Positions 5,477 through 47,707 of a stretch of DNA of 64,000 nucleotides are shown one piece after another. Below the pieces are notes generated by a model that did not search any database, was not told where the DNA came from, and saw only the letters and a list, made by a program, of their open reading frames with translations. The first letter of the stretch is position 1. Every line of letters begins with the position of its first letter. Source of the stretch: Candidatus Kerfeldbacteria bacterium (GTDB lineage Bacteria; Patescibacteriota; Patescibacteriia; UBA10025; JAHIVO01). The stretch spans positions 792,007-856,006 of the forward strand of contig JACROE010000002.1 of assembly GCA_016214565.1 (NCBI GenBank), written 5' to 3'. The position numbers were made by a program, and so were the translations under genes.

Positions 5477-7588
5477 TTGGTATACTATGAGTGTATGGCA
5501 CGGAAACAAAAATCACCAACTACTGGCGTACCGACCGAAATAACGACTGATGATCAGGAGGCGTTTTCTAAGGATGAACTAGCGTCACTGGAGTCGGTTC
5601 GGCCCGCATCCAATTCGATATCGCAATCACGAGTGATTAAGGTTGAAGAAGAAGCGGAGCCGGCCACGCCTAAGTCAAGCCGAAAAAAAATATCCGAAGC
5701 AGCACAGCAGTTTTCCGATTTATATCGGCGCGGCATAGGGGGTACACCGTCGACGCATTTTGACCGAACAGTACCAGGCCGCCGTAAAAAAATCATTATC
5801 GCCGTTATCTGCGGTTTGTTGGTAATCTGCGGTGCAGTCGCCGCCGGGTTCTATTTTTTTGTGAATCGAGAGGCTCAATTTGCCAATGAATCAATCTCTG
5901 TTCGATTTGAAGATGAACCGGTGATTACTTCCGGCTCTTCGTCGACGCTCATCATTATCGTGGAGAATAATGAATCAGTTGCCGTGCAGGATGTTGAATT
6001 AACCCTACAGCTGCCCGACTCATTTACTTTTGAGTCCTCAATTCCCCAAGCGGAAAACGAAGCGCATAATGCTTGGCAGCTTGGCACCATTGAACCGGGA
6101 AAGCAGAAACGTTTGAGCCTAACGGGAATGTTTTTGGGTGAAACTGGCAGTGCCATTACTTTTCCAACAATTCTTAGCTATACGCCATCGAATTTTAGCT
6201 CAGTTTTCCAAACCCAGACGACGCTCCAGACGACCATCAGCGGTTCGGTGCTTGAACTTGATCTGGAGAGCCCACCAAAAAGCATTGCGGGTCGCGATGA
6301 TCTGTATACATTAACACTGACTAATACCGCTGATCATCCTATTGCCCAGGTGGAAATCTCGGTCACCGCCCCCAATGACATGACGGTGAGCAATGTGAGT
6401 CCCGACCCACGGACTGAGGGTAAGCTGATCTGGGCAATCGCAGAAATCAAGGCGGGTGAAGAAATGCAATTCTCCTGGTCAGGTCGCATGGATGCAGCGC
6501 AGGGCACCAGTGGTGAAATACTGGCACAAGCTGGATATACCGATAGCGCAGGTGTATATGTGCCACAGGCGGAAATTACCGCGTTGGTATTTGTGATTAA
6601 TCCGCAATTATTAGTAACCGTGCAGCAGAATGATAGCATCAATGGTGAGCCGCGCGGGTTTGGTGAGCCAGTGGCGTATACGATCATGCTCGAGAATGGG
6701 AGTGATAGTATTATTGAAAATGTGATTGTCGATTTTAAACTTGTGGGAGCGGTCATCAATTGGGATGGCCTCATTGATCCGTTTGCTGGCCATCTCACTG
6801 ACGGGACATTGACGTGGGACTCGACCACCGTGCCAGCGCTGAAGTCGCTAGCGCCCAATGATACAGCGGAAATCTCAATGACCGTACCGGTGAGCAATAC
6901 TTTTACCCCATCCTCCGCAGACGATGGTAATTTTACGATTACGGCTACCGCGACCGCGCACTCGTCAGATGTTCGGGATTTGGAGGGTGAAACGCTGTCA
7001 GTGACGAGTGAGCCCTTAGTGACTAAGATAACGAGTGCTGTTACCTTGCGCAGCGAAGGGAGATATTATAATGACGAATATATTCCAGTTGGGTCTGGTC
7101 CATATCCTCCGGAAGTCGGCACGGCAACGACTTATCGAGTGTACTGGTATTTGCAGAATACGACCAATGAAGTTCAGCAGGTGACCGTAAGTGCAACATT
7201 GCCACAGGGAGTCGTTTGGGCGTTCCAGAGTTCAGCCACGGCGGGGAGTGTCAGCTATGATGCCGAAACCCGAGTAGTCACCTGGTCAATCAACCGATTG
7301 CCGAGGCACGTTGGTCAATTTATTCCCGAACTTGAAGCGTCATTTGCCCTGAGCATGACGCCTGCCGTGAGCGATGTCGGCGATGTCTTGGTACTGCTCA
7401 ATGCCACGACGGTCAGCGGCACTGACGCATTTACTGAAAGTGAAATAGCCAAAACAAGCGCGCCGATCACGAGTGCGCTTCCGACTGATCCTGTCGCGGC
7501 AGGTGATGGAGCCGTCATCATGCCCAAGCCGACCAATAGCAACAGCAATACTAATTCGAACAGCAACCTTAATACGAACGCGAGTTAG
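5477..7588 (+). CDS. Large membrane-anchored surface protein with DUF11-like repeats and an Asn/Ser/Thr-rich C-terminal tail
   Basis: N-terminal transmembrane segment and repeated units of the form LTLTNTADHPIAQVEISVTAP. The low-complexity tail reads NSNSNTNSNSNLNTNAS. The likely true start is ATG 5495, 9 nt after a TATACT box. Confidence 0.5.
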   Translation: MVYYECMARKQKSPTTGVPTEITTDDQEAFSKDELASLESVRPASNSISQSRVIKVEEEAEPATPKSSRKKISEAAQQFSDLYRRGIGGTPSTHFDRTVPGRRKKIIIAVICGLLVICGAVAAGFYFFVNREAQFANESISVRFEDEPVITSGSSSTLIIIVENNESVAVQDVELTLQLPDSFTFESSIPQAENEAHNAWQLGTIEPGKQKRLSLTGMFLGETGSAITFPTILSYTPSNFSSVFQTQTTLQTTISGSVLELDLESPPKSIAGRDDLYTLTLTNTADHPIAQVEISVTAPNDMTVSNVSPDPRTEGKLIWAIAEIKAGEEMQFSWSGRMDAAQGTSGEILAQAGYTDSAGVYVPQAEITALVFVINPQLLVTVQQNDSINGEPRGFGEPVAYTIMLENGSDSIIENVIVDFKLVGAVINWDGLIDPFAGHLTDGTLTWDSTTVPALKSLAPNDTAEISMTVPVSNTFTPSSADDGNFTITATATAHSSDVRDLEGETLSVTSEPLVTKITSAVTLRSEGRYYNDEYIPVGSGPYPPEVGTATTYRVYWYLQNTTNEVQQVTVSATLPQGVVWAFQSSATAGSVSYDAETRVVTWSINRLPRHVGQFIPELEASFALSMTPAVSDVGDVLVLLNATTVSGTDAFTESEIAKTSAPITSALPTDPVAAGDGAVIMPKPTNSNSNTNSNSNLNTNAS

Positions 7589-8201
7589 GCTCGCGGAGTA
7601 TCAGGTGGAGAATGATGCTGAGAGCCGCAAAGAATGCCGCCCCTCCGAGGAGATAGGTGGCGATCATGGTTATTGTTTGACCGGAACTGATCAGTAAAAG
7701 TGCTACGGCGATGCTTTCAAGCGTCATTTTTATTTTTCCGGCGTTATTGGCTCCTAACCTTGGTTTCCGCTGCGTAAATCGTTGTACCAGCGGGCTGATC
7801 ACGATTGCTAAAATCACTAATCCTAATTCCAGACCGACCAGGGTGTAGATGATGGCGTCAGCGACTCTGTCGAGTGCCACAATAAAAAAGACGGTAATAA
7901 TAAGTATCTTATCAGCGGCCGGGTCAAATAATTTTCCTGTGGTTGTTTCGTGTCCACGCTGCCGGGCGACCACGCCGTCCAATACATCAGTCACTAATGC
8001 GACACCAAACACAATCAGCGTGCTGACGATATAGCCTCGGGTGTATAGCCAGTATATCGGGATTACCAATATGATACGGAGTATCGTAATGCCATTCGGT
8101 GTGACCCAGCGGGGGAGGCGCTGTGCCGTTCCGGCGAGAAGCGCATCTTTACGCTGATGGAGTTTGCCGAGCAATGTATGATTTATCGAGTCAGCGCGCA
8201 T
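7569..8201 (-). CDS. CDP-alcohol phosphatidyltransferase family protein (PgsA-like)
   Basis: Motif DVLDGVVARQRGHETTTGKLFDPAADK (D-x2-DG-x2-AR...G...D) in a multi-pass membrane protein. Its 3' end overlaps the convergent upstream gene by 20 nt. Confidence 0.6.
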   Translation of the reverse strand: MRADSINHTLLGKLHQRKDALLAGTAQRLPRWVTPNGITILRIILVIPIYWLYTRGYIVSTLIVFGVALVTDVLDGVVARQRGHETTTGKLFDPAADKILIITVFFIVALDRVADAIIYTLVGLELGLVILAIVISPLVQRFTQRKPRLGANNAGKIKMTLESIAVALLLISSGQTITMIATYLLGGAAFFAALSIILHLILREPNSRSY

Positions 8202-34474: not shown

Positions 34475-34978
34475 GGGTTTTGTCCTCCAAGAACGATGTT
34501 TGTATGATTTTTATTTAATTACACAAAAAAATCTCCGATGTACGGAGATAGTAATGATTGAATATTATCTTCCCCGTGAACGGGCAGGAATGAGCACCTT
34601 TCGATTCCTCAAAAAAAGAGGAGGCCCGTTCGGCTTCATCCGGCATTGCCGGATTCCGCTCAGGGCACTTCGTGGTTGCTGGAACGGCATTGGGCCTGAT
34701 CCCTTTGCATCCGTTCACTCTTGATAATGTTAATTGTTAATGTGTGAATATCAGGCTATCACAAATTAAAAATAATTGTCAAAATGATTTTTATAAATTG
34801 TACTAAGGTTAGCGAAAATCACATGATCCACCCATTTTTTAAAAGTCTGGGTCTTGATTTATTCGCCGACTTGTACTAGTATGAAGTCCATCTTAAGGTT
34901 AAAAACTGTTAGTATTTCTCTAACCTTAGCGATTAATTGTACTTTTGACCTATCGAATTTATCCGCCAGAAATTTTCT

Positions 34979-43342: not shown

Positions 43343-43813
43343 GTGATGACGGTGGCAACACAGCATCATGCCAAACGTTCGAGATGGTCTCGGCTAGTAC
43401 ATACAACGTACAAATCTCGAGGCTGGTGGGTCGACTTTCCCACGCTTGCGCTGCTTGGGCTTTTTCACTGGCATTTTTACTCGAATGGCTTCCATGCCGT
43501 TCCTGATGAAGCGCCTGAATTCTGCTGGACCGTCCTGGTCATGTATCTCATGATCAAGGAAAAGGTTCGGTGGGAACATATGGAAATGCTCTCGCGACGC
43601 GGCAGTGTACTCGTCGGCTTCTGGATGTTCTCGGCGCTTGAATTTTTTGTGGTCATGGCATGGGATGGACATCATTTTCAAATGCCACCGCAAATGATTG
43701 CGACGACATTGATCGTACTCGGCGGTTTCGTCGGAGTGCTGCCCGTGAAGTATTACTTCACCAAGCGGTTCCCGAATGCCTCGGGTGCGTTCCAAGTCAG
43801 CCGAAACGACTAG
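43343..43813 (+). CDS. Hypothetical Trp/His-rich membrane protein
   Basis: AAAGGAGG Shine-Dalgarno; three or four TM helices; locally elevated GC; the antisense ORF 43394..43876 is rejected. Confidence 0.35.
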   Translation: MMTVATQHHAKRSRWSRLVHTTYKSRGWWVDFPTLALLGLFHWHFYSNGFHAVPDEAPEFCWTVLVMYLMIKEKVRWEHMEMLSRRGSVLVGFWMFSALEFFVVMAWDGHHFQMPPQMIATTLIVLGGFVGVLPVKYYFTKRFPNASGAFQVSRND

Positions 43814-43987
43814 ATTCACGCATGCTCTCTGGAATCCCGACGGATCCCAGAGAGCAATTTTATTGTATGATATCATGCCTTGACATGACCGCCGACGTCC
43901 GCTACAGTGAGCGGTACTTTTTGCTCCTTATCATTTGCATAAATGTAACGTGGGTATATTTCGTAAACCTTACTTTTTGGAGGATGT

Positions 43988-44230
43988 ATGACGGGTATTA
44001 TAGTTGCAGGTACAGAGTTTTTGATTGACTATGTGTTGCCGGGTGGTCGGTCGAGTGACGGGGTAAATCGAACGATTGCCACAGTTACCGAAGTGAATCC
44101 TGATGATTCAATCAGTGTCCGATCGGACGGTTTTCCGCAGCTCTGCAGATTGCGGAGTACCGGAGCGGGTTGGAGCGCTGTTTTTTCTGACCGGAATGAA
44201 ATACCGGTTGTTGCCTGCAAGTTGATCTAG
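43988..44230 (+). CDS. Hypothetical 80-aa protein
   Basis: TTGGAGGATGT then ATG; followed by the strong terminator 44258–44300. Confidence 0.4.
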   Translation: MTGIIVAGTEFLIDYVLPGGRSSDGVNRTIATVTEVNPDDSISVRSDGFPQLCRLRSTGAGWSAVFSDRNEIPVVACKLI

Positions 44231-44257
44231 CCGCTTGCCGCGGCTCATTTGTCTTCG

Positions 44258-44300
44258 CTCCTGGTGTGCATATGTGCATGCCAGGAGTATTTTTTATTTT
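44258..44300 (+). terminator. Rho-independent terminator
   Basis: Stem CTCCTGG/CCAGGAG around a palindromic loop, then TATTTTTTATTTT. Confidence 0.75.
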
Positions 44301-44398
44301 CTTGACAGCTATTGATCAATAGTATACTAATACTCGTATGTCATTATTTTCTATTTAGAGTACTGAAGCATTGTATCTTTTGAAAGAGAGGTTAATAC

Positions 44399-44656
44399 AT
44401 GGCAGGAGGTTCGTTCTTTGAGTGCCCGGTGTGCAATCAGTCGGTTCATGTTGGATCAAACGGTTTGTTTGATGAGCATGATAACAAAAGTGGTAAGCCA
44501 TGTCCCGGAGCAGGTCTCCGAGCACGAGGCGGGCCATCTAGTTTTCAGTCGCCGGGATTTCCGCGCAGCAATTTTCATTCAGGCCAGTACACTGGACCGC
44601 AACCGCGTCATCGTGGAAGAATTGGGTCAAAAGCCAGACGATTTAGAAATTGGTAA
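44399..44656 (+). CDS. Hypothetical 85-aa protein with a CPVC...C N-terminus and a basic, disordered tail
   Basis: AGAGAGG Shine-Dalgarno. It ends just before the terminator hairpin at 44679–44710, whereas the competing frame 44418..44756 reads through that hairpin. Confidence 0.35.
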   Translation: MAGGSFFECPVCNQSVHVGSNGLFDEHDNKSGKPCPGAGLRARGGPSSFQSPGFPRSNFHSGQYTGPQPRHRGRIGSKARRFRNW

Positions 44657-44771
44657 TAACCGATTTTGTGAATCTGTAGGCCGTTTCGTATGTGAAGCGG
44701 CCTCTTTTTTACAAAAAAAGAACCCCGTGGTCTATCACTCCACAGGGTCACCATAGCAATTCCCAACCATA

Positions 44772-44933
44772 TCACCGTTTACGACGCGGTGCCAGGACTA
44801 ACGGTAGTCCGACACCAATGAGCATGAGTGCGAGCGCGACTACTGGCATAAACCAGACGATTATGATTGCAACTGCAATCGAGACCCATCTGATGAGTAC
44901 CAGCCAGAGCGGCCGCCCACGTACTGTGGTCAT
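44772..44933 (-). CDS. Unannotated 53-aa two-helix membrane protein
   Basis: AAAAGGAGGTGATGGAC then ATG; sequence MTTVRGRPLWLVLIRWVSIAVAIIIVWFMPVVALALMLIGVGLPLVLAPRRKR. Confidence 0.35.
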   Translation of the reverse strand: MTTVRGRPLWLVLIRWVSIAVAIIIVWFMPVVALALMLIGVGLPLVLAPRRKR

Positions 44934-45062
44934 GTCCATCACCTCCTTTTTGGGTATTTGGCATGTCCATAGGTAAGTGTAGTCCTTTTAGTATACATGA
45001 TGCAAGGCATAGGATATGCATCAATTTTTTGATATACTGAGATCATCATTGAGAGAGTTTAA

Positions 45063-45848
45063 ATGTATATGGACAAAACTCGTCCCCCGCACTGGACTCC
45101 GCCAGCTGGGCATAAGTCAGAAATTGAGGGAACTTCGGCAATGGCGCAGAATGCTCAATCAGCGACCGAAAAACCAAAAAAGCACCATGGTTGGCTTATT
45201 TTCTTTGTCGTAGTGTTTTTACTCATTATTGGTATAGCTACTGCTGTGGCGGCTACGGGCGTCTATGCTGTTCCCGTCCTCACCGGGGTGTTTAAATCGG
45301 ATCAGCCGATTGATCTCGGCATTAGCAACGATCCAGCATATCTCGAAACGTTGTATGCGAAAGTACCGATGACTATTTCAAGTACGCGAACCAATTCGTT
45401 AGTGAATATGTTTGAGGGGCAGATAGATGTGCACATGCGCGGTACGTCCGAGGAGATTACGGCTTGGCTAACCCGGTTTGAAGGGGATAATCCTGCATTT
45501 AGTAACGTACAAGTAAATATGATTGAGGGCGGCATGGAAGTATCGGGCATAGTTAACGAATACATCCACGCGCCTGCCTATATCAAGGCTGGCGTAACAA
45601 TGTCCACAAATAAATCAATTGATCTTACTGTTGCGGCTGCAAAAATAGGTCGTGTATCAGTACCTCAGCATTATCTCGACGATGTTGAAAAATATTTTGA
45701 AGACCACATTAATGCGCAGATGGCTCGCACCGAAGGCTTTTCCATGGAAAAACTCGAATATCATTCTGGTTATAGTGATTTCGTTGGCACCTTGCCCGCA
45801 CGTGCATTTTCGCATGATCGCGGATGGAGTGCATTATTAATTGATTAA
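45063..45848 (+). CDS. Single-pass membrane protein with a ~200-aa extracytoplasmic domain; first gene of the heliorhodopsin operon
   Basis: TM helix (GWLIFFVVVFLLIIGIATAVAA); ends 10 nt before the heliorhodopsin start. Confidence 0.5.
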   Translation: MYMDKTRPPHWTPPAGHKSEIEGTSAMAQNAQSATEKPKKHHGWLIFFVVVFLLIIGIATAVAATGVYAVPVLTGVFKSDQPIDLGISNDPAYLETLYAKVPMTISSTRTNSLVNMFEGQIDVHMRGTSEEITAWLTRFEGDNPAFSNVQVNMIEGGMEVSGIVNEYIHAPAYIKAGVTMSTNKSIDLTVAAAKIGRVSVPQHYLDDVEKYFEDHINAQMARTEGFSMEKLEYHSGYSDFVGTLPARAFSHDRGWSALLID

Positions 45849-45857
45849 TTATTTATT

Positions 45858-46655
45858 ATGGATCAAATTCAACAATCAGCTGATCAATTGCAATTAAAGT
45901 TAAAGCGATTACGTCGGTTTAACATCATTATGGCTTTTTTGCACGCGGCTCAGGGCGCGGCTATGTTGCTATTGAGCTCTTCATTTTCACTTTCAGTAAC
46001 TAGCGCATTTGTACGGATGGACTTCGAATCCGGCAAGTTGCAGCCATATTTACAAACAGTTTTTGAACTTCCTATCGGGTTTTTGGTTGCGTGCTTCTTA
46101 TTTTTGTCTGCAATAGCACATGCGCTTATTTCATTTGTACCAGCTATTAGCGCCTGGTATAACCGCAATTTGCTCAAAGGGGCGAATTACGCACGATGGG
46201 TAGAGTACGCTTTTAGCTCATCGGTGATGATGGTGGTGATTGCCATGTTGGTTGGGATGTATGACGGTATCAGCTTGTTATTCATTTTCTTTCTCAATGC
46301 TATGATGATCCTGTTCGGTTGGATGATGGAGCTGCACAATCAAACCACCCCAAAAACAAATTGGACAGCATATATTTTTGGTTGTATCGCCGGTATTGTT
46401 CCGTGGGTTGGCGTTGGTATCTATTTGTTTGCGGCGGGTGAAGGGGATGCGAAAGCACCCACATTTGTCTATTGGATCTACTTTTCGATTTTTCTATTTT
46501 TCAATAGTTTTGCCGTTAATCAAGTATTACAGTATAAAAAAGTGGGGAAGTGGCAGGATTACCTGTATGGAGAGCGGGCGTATATTATCCTTAGCTTAGT
46601 TGCAAAATCATTATTGGCATGGCAGGTGTGGGCAGGGACACTGCGACCAGTGTAG
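45858..46655 (+). CDS. Heliorhodopsin
   Basis: 7-TM protein, collinear with heliorhodopsin 48C12. RWVEYAFSSSVMMVVIA carries the counterion Glu, with FGCIAGIVPWVGV and FLFFNSFAV. ERAYIILSLVAKSLLAWQVWAGTL has the Schiff-base Lys in TM7. Confidence 0.85.
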   Translation: MDQIQQSADQLQLKLKRLRRFNIIMAFLHAAQGAAMLLLSSSFSLSVTSAFVRMDFESGKLQPYLQTVFELPIGFLVACFLFLSAIAHALISFVPAISAWYNRNLLKGANYARWVEYAFSSSVMMVVIAMLVGMYDGISLLFIFFLNAMMILFGWMMELHNQTTPKTNWTAYIFGCIAGIVPWVGVGIYLFAAGEGDAKAPTFVYWIYFSIFLFFNSFAVNQVLQYKKVGKWQDYLYGERAYIILSLVAKSLLAWQVWAGTLRPV

Positions 46656-46658
46656 TCT

Positions 46659-47357
46659 ATGACAAAATATAATCATCAGTCAGTTCAAGCCACCGGCGCC
46701 TCCCTGCGCGAAATCGTATTTGGCATGGAGGATGGCATGGTTTCCACCCTGGGAGCGGTGACTGGCATCGCCATCGGCAGCCAGGATCATTTTATGGTGG
46801 TGATGGCCGGTATGGTTATTATAGCGGTTGAGTCTATTTCCATGGGTGTTGGTTCATATCTATCAAATCGTTCACAACAAGATCTTCATCATCGGGTACT
46901 GCACGAGGAACGTGAGGAAATTAAGGATTACCCCCATGAGGAGCAACACGAATTAAATCGGATGTTTATTCGAGATGGATGGCCGCCACACTTAGCCGAG
47001 CACATGACTGAAGTGGCAGCTAAGGATCGCCATCTTATGCTTCAGGAAATGGCGTATCGTGAATTAAACATTGCCGGCACTTCACATGGCACTCCAATTC
47101 GAAATGGTATATATATGTTTATTGCTTATGTGGTTGGCGGAATGGTTCCTTTGCTTGCATATTTATTAATGAGTGTTTCTCAGGCAATGCCCATTTCGAT
47201 TGTTGTCACCCTACTGGGATTATTCGGGCTGGGAGCGGCCACTACTCGATTGACGAAGGGGGGATGGTTTAGATCAGGACTACGCATCATGATTCTTGGC
47301 GGCTTGGCAATGGTGATTGGATTAGTCGTAGGTAATTTTGCAAAAGACCTTAAATAA
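46659..47357 (+). CDS. VIT1/CCC1-family Fe/Mn transporter
   Basis: LREIVFGMEDGMVSTLGAVTGIAIG N-terminal motif; five TM helices; starts 4 nt after the heliorhodopsin stop. Confidence 0.7.
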   Translation: MTKYNHQSVQATGASLREIVFGMEDGMVSTLGAVTGIAIGSQDHFMVVMAGMVIIAVESISMGVGSYLSNRSQQDLHHRVLHEEREEIKDYPHEEQHELNRMFIRDGWPPHLAEHMTEVAAKDRHLMLQEMAYRELNIAGTSHGTPIRNGIYMFIAYVVGGMVPLLAYLLMSVSQAMPISIVVTLLGLFGLGAATTRLTKGGWFRSGLRIMILGGLAMVIGLVVGNFAKDLK

Positions 47358-47422
47358 TAAAATCGACACGCAACGAAGGATAGCTGCGTGTCGGGAGGAT
47401 GGGCGTGATGTGTATTGTATCA

Positions 47423-47707
47423 TCACGCTGGTTTTGTTTTGCTGTGCGATACGGTTTCGAAGAGACCGAGATCGAAAATGCCGATGACCTCACCATCCAC
47501 GACATAGGAGTCGGGACTGGTGCTGCCGGAAAAGAACGAATCGCCCGGGTGGCCATACATTAATTGCATGGTGTTTTCATCAAAGCGGATTTTTGCCGCT
47601 GCCAGCACATCGGCGTACGTGGCACGAAGTTCTACTTCGGTGAGTTCAACCACGATGGCTGGTTGAGCAGTTTTACCCTGCGCAATTCGGAGTATCGTGC
47701 ATTTCAT
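47423..47707 (-). CDS. Hypothetical 94-aa protein
   Basis: CAGGAGTAGGCAT then ATG; convergent with the VIT gene; hairpins at 47364–47393 and 47403–47442 lie between them. Confidence 0.45.
   Translation of the reverse strand: MKCTILRIAQGKTAQPAIVVELTEVELRATYADVLAAAKIRFDENTMQLMYGHPGDSFFSGSTSPDSYVVDGEVIGIFDLGLFETVSHSKTKPA

Follow-up and report, generated by a model that had tools for sequence, protein, structure and literature searches.

A three-gene locus of a Candidatus Kerfeldbacteria bacterium joins a heliorhodopsin (HeR) to a single-pass membrane protein (ORF1) and to a divalent metal transporter of the VIT1/CCC1 family (VIT1). It lies in a stretch of 64,000 nucleotides (assembly GCA_016214565.1, contig JACROE010000002.1, positions 792,007 to 856,006 of the forward strand), hereafter called the window. 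We consider it fairly probable that the three genes form an operon, in which an ancestral ORF1-HeR pair has been joined by a lineage-specific VIT1 under a common theme of light damage. By comparison with related loci, the persistent unit in the clade is ORF1 plus HeR, and the slot directly downstream of HeR is evolutionarily variable, being occupied by VIT1, by a pyrimidine-dimer DNA glycosylase (Pyr_excise) or by a terminator. The HeR-VIT1 operon is best classed with the known operons of HeR and a neighbouring gene; the pairing itself is new to the literature searched.

Organization of the locus

The initial annotation had described three co-directional genes, the second and third starting 10 and 4 nt after the preceding stop codons. 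The open reading frames (ORFs) are indeed found at these coordinates (Table 1), with spacers of 9 nt (TTATTTATT) between ORF1 and HeR and of 3 nt (TCT) between HeR and VIT1. In the GenBank annotation, ORF1 starts two codons later, giving a protein of 259 amino acids. The single promoter motif proposed to precede the trio, TGATATACT, is also present. In the window, TGNTATACT occurs six times against 1.03 expected, exclusively on the plus strand, and none of 100 shuffles reached six copies; four of the six are located 27-39 nt 5′ of ORF starts. The sister genome (loci L001 and L009) has TGCTATACT at the equivalent -39 position 5′ of ORF1. TGNTATACT probably represents the extended -10 promoter that this Kerfeldbacteria genome favours.

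A terminator-like hairpin upstream closes plus-strand transcription arriving from that side, isolating the operon, and a hairpin scan of the locus found no terminator-like structures between ORF1, HeR and VIT1. With no internal terminators, a terminator upstream and an enriched promoter motif conserved in the sister genome, co-transcription of the three genes is well supported by the sequence.

Table 1. Coordinates of the operon, its putative signals and related genes (window positions, unless a survey locus is named)
Feature	Position	Strand	Size	Remarks
ORF1	45063-45848	+	261 aa	single-pass (N-in) membrane protein, large uncharacterised family of the candidate phyla radiation (CPR)
HeR	45858-46655	+	265 aa	E116 counterion, S247/K251 motif, H29/H88
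VIT1/CCC1-family divalent metal (Fe2+/Mn2+) transporter	46659-47357	+	232 aa	Glu-rich cytoplasmic metal-binding domain
Extended -10 promoter-like element TGATATACT	45030-45038	+		24 nt 5′ of first ORF1 ATG
TGNTATACT copies	5478, 21617, 24561, 25663, 26663, 45030	+		window scan
Terminator-like hairpin and T-run	44678-44703	+		11-bp stem, 6 GC pairs, tail CTTTTTT
Hairpin between VIT1 and convergent 94-aa ORF (47423-47707, -)	47364-47393	.		T-run on minus side only
Glycosylase genes	L006:6802-7134, L007:6802-7134, L008:6811-7146, L093:6693-7031, L105:6802-7140
cl2 genes	L006:4531-5076, L007:4478-5080, L008:8393-8905, L093:4424-4969, L105:4642-5187

The heliorhodopsin

Judged by its sequence, the second gene product is a canonical HeR, typical of a family that has been reported from the phylum before. 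It matches the Pfam family PF18761 over profile positions 1-242 of 242 (E = 1.5e-97; 326 bits against a cutoff of 26.7) and the NCBIfam equivalog NF038020 with 335 bits (cutoff 100), and is collinear with the solved structures of TaHeR (6is6, 2e-71) and 48C12 (6su3, 5.5e-64). The full-length profile match and the alignments agree with the initial annotation, which had recognised a heliorhodopsin with the glutamate of RWVEY and the Schiff-base lysine of transmembrane helix (TM) 7. E116 of RWVEY aligns with the TaHeR counterion position that is changed in the E108D entry 7clj; the equivalent TM3 counterion glutamates are E107 in 48C12 and E108 in TaHeR. The TM7 lysine is K251, which, together with S247 in SLVAKSLLAW, is aligned to SLVAKSALAW; SLVAK is shared by TaHeR and 48C12. 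H29 and H88 align with the TaHeR histidines in VIHLIQ and ATAHILI, which we take to be the conserved pair near the Schiff-base cavity, H23 and H80 in 48C12 numbering. A positive-inside cue, KLKRLRR (residues 14-20), precedes TM1, as read from the sequence alone; it would fit the inverted topology of HeRs, in which the N-terminus is cytoplasmic. Like TaHeR (6IS6) and 48C12 (6SU3), the protein has the full length of the family, the counterion glutamate, the SxxxK motif and both histidines, in a CPR host of the monoderm type. No structural difference from either is seen at the sequence level, and the window HeR is unusual in its gene neighbourhood only.

The SxxxK retinal-binding motif has been defined before, and SLVAK is its commonest variant in HeRs of CPR bacteria (PMC9166423). 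HeRs 66-80% identical to that of the window are abundant in Patescibacteria, a phylum in which Bulzu et al. 2021 and Chiriac et al. 2022 had already recorded HeRs (PMC9166423, PMC8612252). A scan of nearly all window ORFs of at least 110 amino acids that are not obvious antisense overlaps revealed no family of carotenoid or retinal biosynthesis, in line with the initial statement that the window holds no retinal biosynthesis gene. A lateral fenestration of HeR is a proposed entry route for exogenous retinal (PMC9385722); from this and from the lack of retinal genes in the window, we infer that HeR would be loaded with retinal scavenged from outside.

The metal transporter

The third protein matches PF01988 over profile positions 1-213 of 214 (1.1e-54; 186 bits against a cutoff of 28.1) and aligns with EgVIT1 (6iu3, 1.2e-25) without gaps across TM1-TM2, which bears out its earlier identification as a VIT1/CCC1-family Fe/Mn transporter. 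Asp43, Gly44, Gly69 and Met80 of EgVIT1 correspond to D25, G26, G51 and M62 here (EgVIT1 residue numbering as in PMC7714665, where Asp43 and Met80 are placed at the entrance of the translocation pathway). Between TM2 and TM3, a Glu-rich metal-binding domain, HEEREEIKDYPHEEQHE, aligns with helix H1 of the metal-binding domain of EgVIT1. Glu72 of EgVIT1, part of the proton/iron relay, and the kink residue Pro48 are replaced by I54 and T30; E58 lies one helical turn from the aligned position. Prokaryote-rich VIT groups are known to vary in, or to lack, several residues of this kind, Asp43 and Pro48 among them (PMC7714665); Glu72 and Pro48 are variable, not defining, features of VIT1.

We also considered MbfA and rejected it: the match to NF045676 reached 24 bits (cutoff 450) and was confined to the C-terminal TM part. 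In the window protein only 15 residues precede the VIT domain; lacking the N-terminal erythrin/ferritin-like di-iron domain, it is not MbfA. It shares with EgVIT1 (6IU3), yeast Ccc1 and MbfA the five-TM VIT fold signature, the four residues and the Glu-rich domain, but differs from EgVIT1 at the positions of Glu72 and Pro48 and from MbfA in having no erythrin domain. By analogy with the biochemistry of EgVIT1 and PfVIT (PMC7714665, PMC5309874), VIT1 would export Fe2+/Mn2+ against protons, since transport across the plasma membrane of a CPR bacterium would be export.

The membrane protein ORF1

ORF1 begins with a disordered cytoplasmic tail of about 40 residues that ends in a basic patch, PKKHH. 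The model places a single TM helix at residues 42-65, ahead of a conserved alpha/beta domain of some 190 residues. By the positive-inside rule, the basic patch before the helix places this domain outside the cytoplasm, in keeping with the membrane-anchored protein with a large extracytoplasmic domain that had been predicted. An AlphaFold2 model calculated from an 80-sequence alignment has a mean predicted local distance difference test score of 86.9, with values above 90 across the ectodomain. No match to ORF1 was found in Pfam, NCBIfam, PHROGs or the PDB sequences, either with the single sequence or with a profile, and a Foldseek search gave nothing significant (best E 0.04). The weak top Foldseek matches are lipid binders (fibrillin 5, LBP, botulinum P47, SPLUNC1 and START); a hydrophobic-ligand-binding wrap fold may be taken as a lead only. 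Membership in the YceB/DUF1439 or takeout/TULIP-like lipid-binding folds was not established, the scores falling short of significance and sequence similarity being absent.

An exhaustive profile search collected 1,078 representatives of the ORF1 family at 50% identity (448 at E<=1e-30), nearly all about 240 residues long. Named members come from diverse CPR lineages, including Woesebacteria, WWE3 and Roizmanbacteria. The invariant or near-invariant residues are mostly polar (D84, K100, E131, Q150, E159, S161, Y173 and K175). The family is a candidate new protein family, and it represents a sizeable gap in protein annotation, yet it is mostly unlinked to HeR: among the distant members examined, no HeR and no recurring gene context were found.

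As in the sensory rhodopsin II-HtrII pair, a gene for a membrane protein directly precedes, in the same orientation, that of a non-pumping rhodopsin. ORF1 is not a member of the Htr transducers, however, and this candidate was rejected: it has one TM helix rather than two, lacks HAMP and MCP domains, and is for the most part extracellular. The role of signalling partner suggested for ORF1 in the initial annotation has no support other than the adjacency to HeR, which is well conserved: ORF1 has a single TM helix, lacks a cytoplasmic signalling domain and could be assigned to no recognised family.

Gene neighbourhoods of related heliorhodopsins

The survey comprised 80 species-representative HeR loci, of at least 561 detected, with HeRs 57-80% identical to that of the window. 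They are mostly from Patescibacteria, with some from Chloroflexota and Actinomycetota, and their six-frame ORFs were searched with the three window proteins. HeR neighbours fell into 693 clusters, 105 of them seen in at least two loci, and 12 families abut HeR (within 400 nt) in two loci or more. ORF1 is the first of these, with four loci; DUF1295, Pyr_excise and DUF2177 have three each and VIT1 has two. DUF2177, photolyase and SDR/NmrA are other recurrent neighbours of HeR, and ATP-binding cassette (ABC) transporters occur nearby. These other neighbours reproduce the groups of Cho et al. 2024 (PMC11109279), which validates the survey. Two published surveys of HeR neighbours (PMC8612252, PMC11109279) list none of VIT1, Pyr_excise and the ORF1 family, and no prior link between HeR and VIT, or HeR-VIT1 operon, was found in the literature searched.

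For ORF1, genome loci, exact-protein look-ups and one metagenome scan were tallied together, close homologues being 37-64% identical. ORF1 shares a gene string with HeR in 9 of 17 close-homologue loci, and lies within 2.4-3.5 kb of it in two more (L008 and L103). The order is ORF1-HeR in the window, L001 and L088, cl2-ORF1-HeR-glycosylase in L006, L007, L093 and L105, and HeR-ORF1 in L012; in L092 a small TM gene stands between HeR and ORF1. The ORF1-HeR spacer is 9-26 nt in L105, L088, L001 and the window. It is 120-124 nt in L006, L007 and L093, where it contains a terminator-like hairpin followed by a -35/-10 promoter-like element, TTTACA-17-TATAAT, and where HeR and the glycosylase form a unit of their own. 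The comparison among loci shows that ORF1 became paired with HeR earlier than VIT1 did, and that its pairing with HeR is the more widely distributed.

The small TM protein of L092 (1039-1345) has about 90 residues, and the three genes are tightly packed. The cl2 gene encodes a lipoprotein-like protein of 170-200 residues and is always directly 5′ of ORF1 in one sub-clade; it moves with ORF1 in L008, where HeR is followed by Pyr_excise and the cl2-ORF1 pair lies 2.4 kb downstream. Its precomputed annotation, PF27226 (AF_1845), was not detected in our Pfam scan. No homologues of cl2 or Pyr_excise were found elsewhere in the window.

The glycosylase (PF03013, 3e-25) is encoded 3-12 nt 3′ of HeR in L006, L007, L008, L093/L104 and L105, whose HeRs are 77-80% identical to that of the window. 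This HeR-glycosylase UV-repair operon parallels the known link between HeR and photolyase and is outside the published HeR neighbour groups.

VIT1 abuts HeR in two loci, L009 (from the same genome as L001) and L074. The sister genome holds the same trio, with identities of 63% for ORF1, 79% for HeR and 81% for VIT1, and a HeR-VIT1 spacer of 7-10 nt in L001. In L074, from a Berkelbacteria metagenome-assembled genome (MAG), the segment 5284-6756 consists of a terminator, VIT1, an 18-nt gap containing AAGGAG and HeR, in reversed order with respect to the window. The VIT1 of L074 shares only 25% identity with that of the window, against 81% for that of the sister genome; the VIT1-HeR juxtaposition therefore arose twice. 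Weaker VIT-like genes are located 3.5 kb from HeR in L077 and, convergently, 0.5 kb downstream of it in L080. The latter, in a MAG labelled Saccharibacteria (7275-8144, minus strand), encodes a VIT1-like protein of 289 residues with an N-terminal extension of about 135 residues.

The gene order in L088 is ATP synthase, Pro_CA_2, alpha/beta hydrolase, a small minus-strand gene, ORF1-HeR and Zincin_1, with flanks that match those of the window. Between HeR and Zincin_1, the window has VIT1 and the 94-aa minus-strand ORF, L001 has VIT1 and an inositol monophosphatase, and L088 has a 190-aa minus-strand gene. In L088, which lacks VIT1, a terminator hairpin immediately follows HeR. VIT1 is also absent beside HeR in the nearest HeR relatives, L006, L007, L008, L093 and L105; the conservation in related genomes on which the initial annotation had made its operon depend is thus largely missing for VIT1. 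Four more loci labelled Kerfeldbacteria (L019, L029, L035 and L040) have neither VIT1 nor ORF1 beside HeR.

A rough estimate of enrichment was made for the 79 loci outside the discovery lineage, assuming one VIT1 per genome of about 1000 genes. VIT1 abutting HeR was observed once against about 0.16 expected (P ~0.15), and within four genes of HeR three times against about 0.6 expected (P ~0.03). Under an assumed gene density and with such very small counts, enrichment of VIT1 near HeR is suggestive.

Several third-party-annotated MAGs titled 'uncultured Gammaproteobacteria' carry a CPR-type HeR (L007, L010, L013, L017, L020, L032, L051, L053, L062 and L070), and L007 also carries a member of the ORF1 family. 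HeR has been reported absent from diderms, so these titles look wrong.

Other features of the window

The remaining genes of the window are ordinary CPR housekeeping genes, encoding among others tRNA synthetases, ClpB, RecO, glycosyltransferases and a pilin of type IV secretion system type. Synteny with L001 identifies an F-type ATP synthase operon just upstream of the three-gene locus, at 36.5-42.0 kb. The 1.25 kb directly 5′ of the locus (43813-45060) contain small ORFs only. An 80-aa ORF (43988-44230) appears to match a 79-aa gene of L001, by relative position only, and an 85-aa ORF (44399-44656) with a CPVC motif is specific to the window. A divergent minus-strand gene for a 56-aa protein with two TM helices (44772-44942) is conserved in L001 and L088 and has its own conserved terminator hairpin; terminators stand back-to-back at about 44678-44750.

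Further upstream, a S-adenosylmethionine riboswitch (RF00162, 48.7 bits) was detected on the minus strand at 34562-34730, with no convincing minus-strand ORF downstream. The region 33.8-34.56 kb is poor in ORFs, and the short ORFs there have no Pfam match. The element may be an orphan riboswitch or belong to a decayed gene.

Discussion

In the explanation we favour, VIT1 would have joined an ancestral ORF1-HeR pair in a single lineage, entering a variable slot that receives genes for the mitigation of photodamage. HeR would be a slow-photocycle light sensor or regulatory helper, co-expressed with genes against light damage that differ by lineage: in the sister clade a gene for the repair of cyclobutane dimers, and in the lineage of the window one for proton-coupled export of redox-active Fe2+/Mn2+. 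Export of iron and manganese would lower labile iron and so reduce photo-Fenton damage. The minimal coupling of HeR to VIT1 would be co-expression; direct binding, at which only the adjacency hints, may also occur. ORF1 would be a clade-specific neighbour drawn from a general family of CPR envelope proteins.

HeR is known to regulate operon neighbours by binding, the partners being glutamine synthetase (PMC9529153), a photolyase (PMC9769723) and an ABC transporter (PMC11109279), and an oxidative-stress theme has been drawn from HeR neighbourhoods (PMC8612252, PMC9166423). The light-damage reading fits both this theme and the published interactions. As in the AbHeR-glutamine synthetase, TfHeR-photolyase and OcHeR-OmrDE operons, the window HeR is co-directional and tightly spaced with a gene that does not encode a photoreceptor. 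TerC-family proteins are manganese exporters. They are among the ten frequent groups of HeR neighbours, and in the OcHeR-OmrDE operon the partner is likewise a membrane transporter, of the ABC type (PMC11109279). The window differs from the published operons in that its partner is a VIT1/CCC1 secondary transporter, outside the ten published groups, and in that the HeR-VIT1 pairing is confined to two small lineages and does not recur across many HeR genomes.

Several observations weigh against this explanation. Adjacency of VIT1 to HeR occurs in only two independent lineages of about 80 loci. The pair of ORF1 and HeR has its own exceptions: six close ORF1 homologues (L086, L089, L091, L095, L096 and L097) have no HeR in the available sequence, which covers flanks of 5-6 kb except for 1.3 kb on one side of L097, and HeR-linked and unlinked copies are intermixed in a neighbour-joining tree of the ectodomain. 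The terminator and promoter between ORF1 and HeR in L006, L007 and L093 indicate that the two are not always co-transcribed. In the window itself, the hairpin 3′ of VIT1 is a canonical terminator for the minus-strand 94-aa ORF, but it has no plus-strand T-tract and is not a canonical plus-strand terminator; termination of the operon there is therefore presumed. A sigma-70-like match within ORF1 (45464-45491) is a candidate internal promoter; in the scan for -35/-10 sites, however, sigma-70 matches are no commoner than in shuffled sequence, so the scan adds nothing on internal promoters. Finally, the 'photodamage-mitigation slot' is a post-hoc theme drawn from two gene types.

Alternatively, VIT1 may simply have been inserted or retained between HeR and Zincin_1 and be read through from the ORF1-HeR promoter, with no link to light. 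The HeR-Zincin_1 interval differs in all three syntenic genomes, HeR neighbourhoods in this clade are highly fluid (as the low proportion of recurrent clusters illustrates), and short spacers are common in the compact genomes of CPR bacteria. Against such an accident stand the independent bicistron of L074 and the tight HeR-VIT1 coupling, which was kept in two genomes despite the divergence of ORF1 to 63% identity; we judge it somewhat unlikely. At the other extreme, HeR would bind the VIT1 dimer, and a long-lived photointermediate would raise or lower Fe2+/Mn2+ efflux, by analogy with the modulation of the OmrDE ABC transporter by HeR. The 3-nt spacer, the 81% identity of VIT1 in the sister genome, the reverse-order bicistron in Berkelbacteria and two more VIT-like genes within 4 kb of HeR (L077 and L080) are all consistent with this, as is the estimate for VIT1 within four genes, under its assumed density. 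Regulation of membrane transporters by HeR has been published, and TerC-family neighbours have been listed (PMC11109279). However, VIT1 is missing from L088, from all five of the nearest HeR relatives and from the four further loci that bear a Kerfeldbacteria label, it is in no published list of HeR neighbours (PMC8612252, PMC11109279), and the enrichment estimate rests on an assumed density and tiny counts. Direct gating seems unlikely. The coupling of HeR to a metal transporter put forward initially stands as far as the trio is tightly packed and the HeR-VIT1 pairing recurs in the sister genome and L074, but not as an adjacency conserved among relatives. Once gating and accident have been given their due, co-expression with a shared physiological theme takes the remainder, roughly an even chance.

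A different possibility is that ORF1 is the real partner of HeR, handing it captured exogenous retinal or carotenoid through the fenestration, or relaying its conformational changes to the outside. ORF1 is in the same string as HeR in nine distinct loci, with at least three arrangements and flanking contexts, and 2.4-3.5 kb away in two more; it is the top HeR-abutting family of the survey. PKKHH would put its folded domain outside, on the same side as the C-terminus and the A-B loop of HeR, and the window has no retinal synthesis genes, while uptake through the fenestration has been proposed (PMC9385722). On the other hand, the 1,078 CPR representatives are mostly without HeR and have no consistent context, six close homologues have no HeR nearby, and the tree does not separate HeR-linked copies from unlinked ones. 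Most of the invariant residues are polar, which is not what a simple lipid pocket would show, and a terminator separates the two genes in three loci. We regard a dedicated partnership of this kind as improbable. Still less credence is given to a combined scheme, in which HeR would physically control a VIT1/CCC1 exporter (light-gated Fe/Mn efflux) assembled twice in CPR bacteria, with ORF1 aiding retinal loading. We retain the operon of an ancestral pair and a lineage-specific VIT1 as our preferred explanation.

The cellular role of HeR is largely open, and it was through tests of operon neighbours that its few known functions were found. The locus described here brings in three further candidates: VIT1, paired with HeR twice independently, the pyrimidine-dimer DNA glycosylase in the nearest relatives, and ORF1. 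If the metal link is false, the locus is another case of the fluid gene neighbourhoods of HeR. If it is true, light sensing would be tied to the control of Fenton chemistry in ultra-small bacteria that probably make no retinal themselves, and light-gated efflux of iron and manganese would be the first link of a rhodopsin to transition-metal homeostasis. Being limited to two small lineages, the VIT1 link is a testable lead on HeR function rather than a general rule, and its recurrence in Berkelbacteria keeps the hypothesis of light and metal alive as an idea that is cheap to test.

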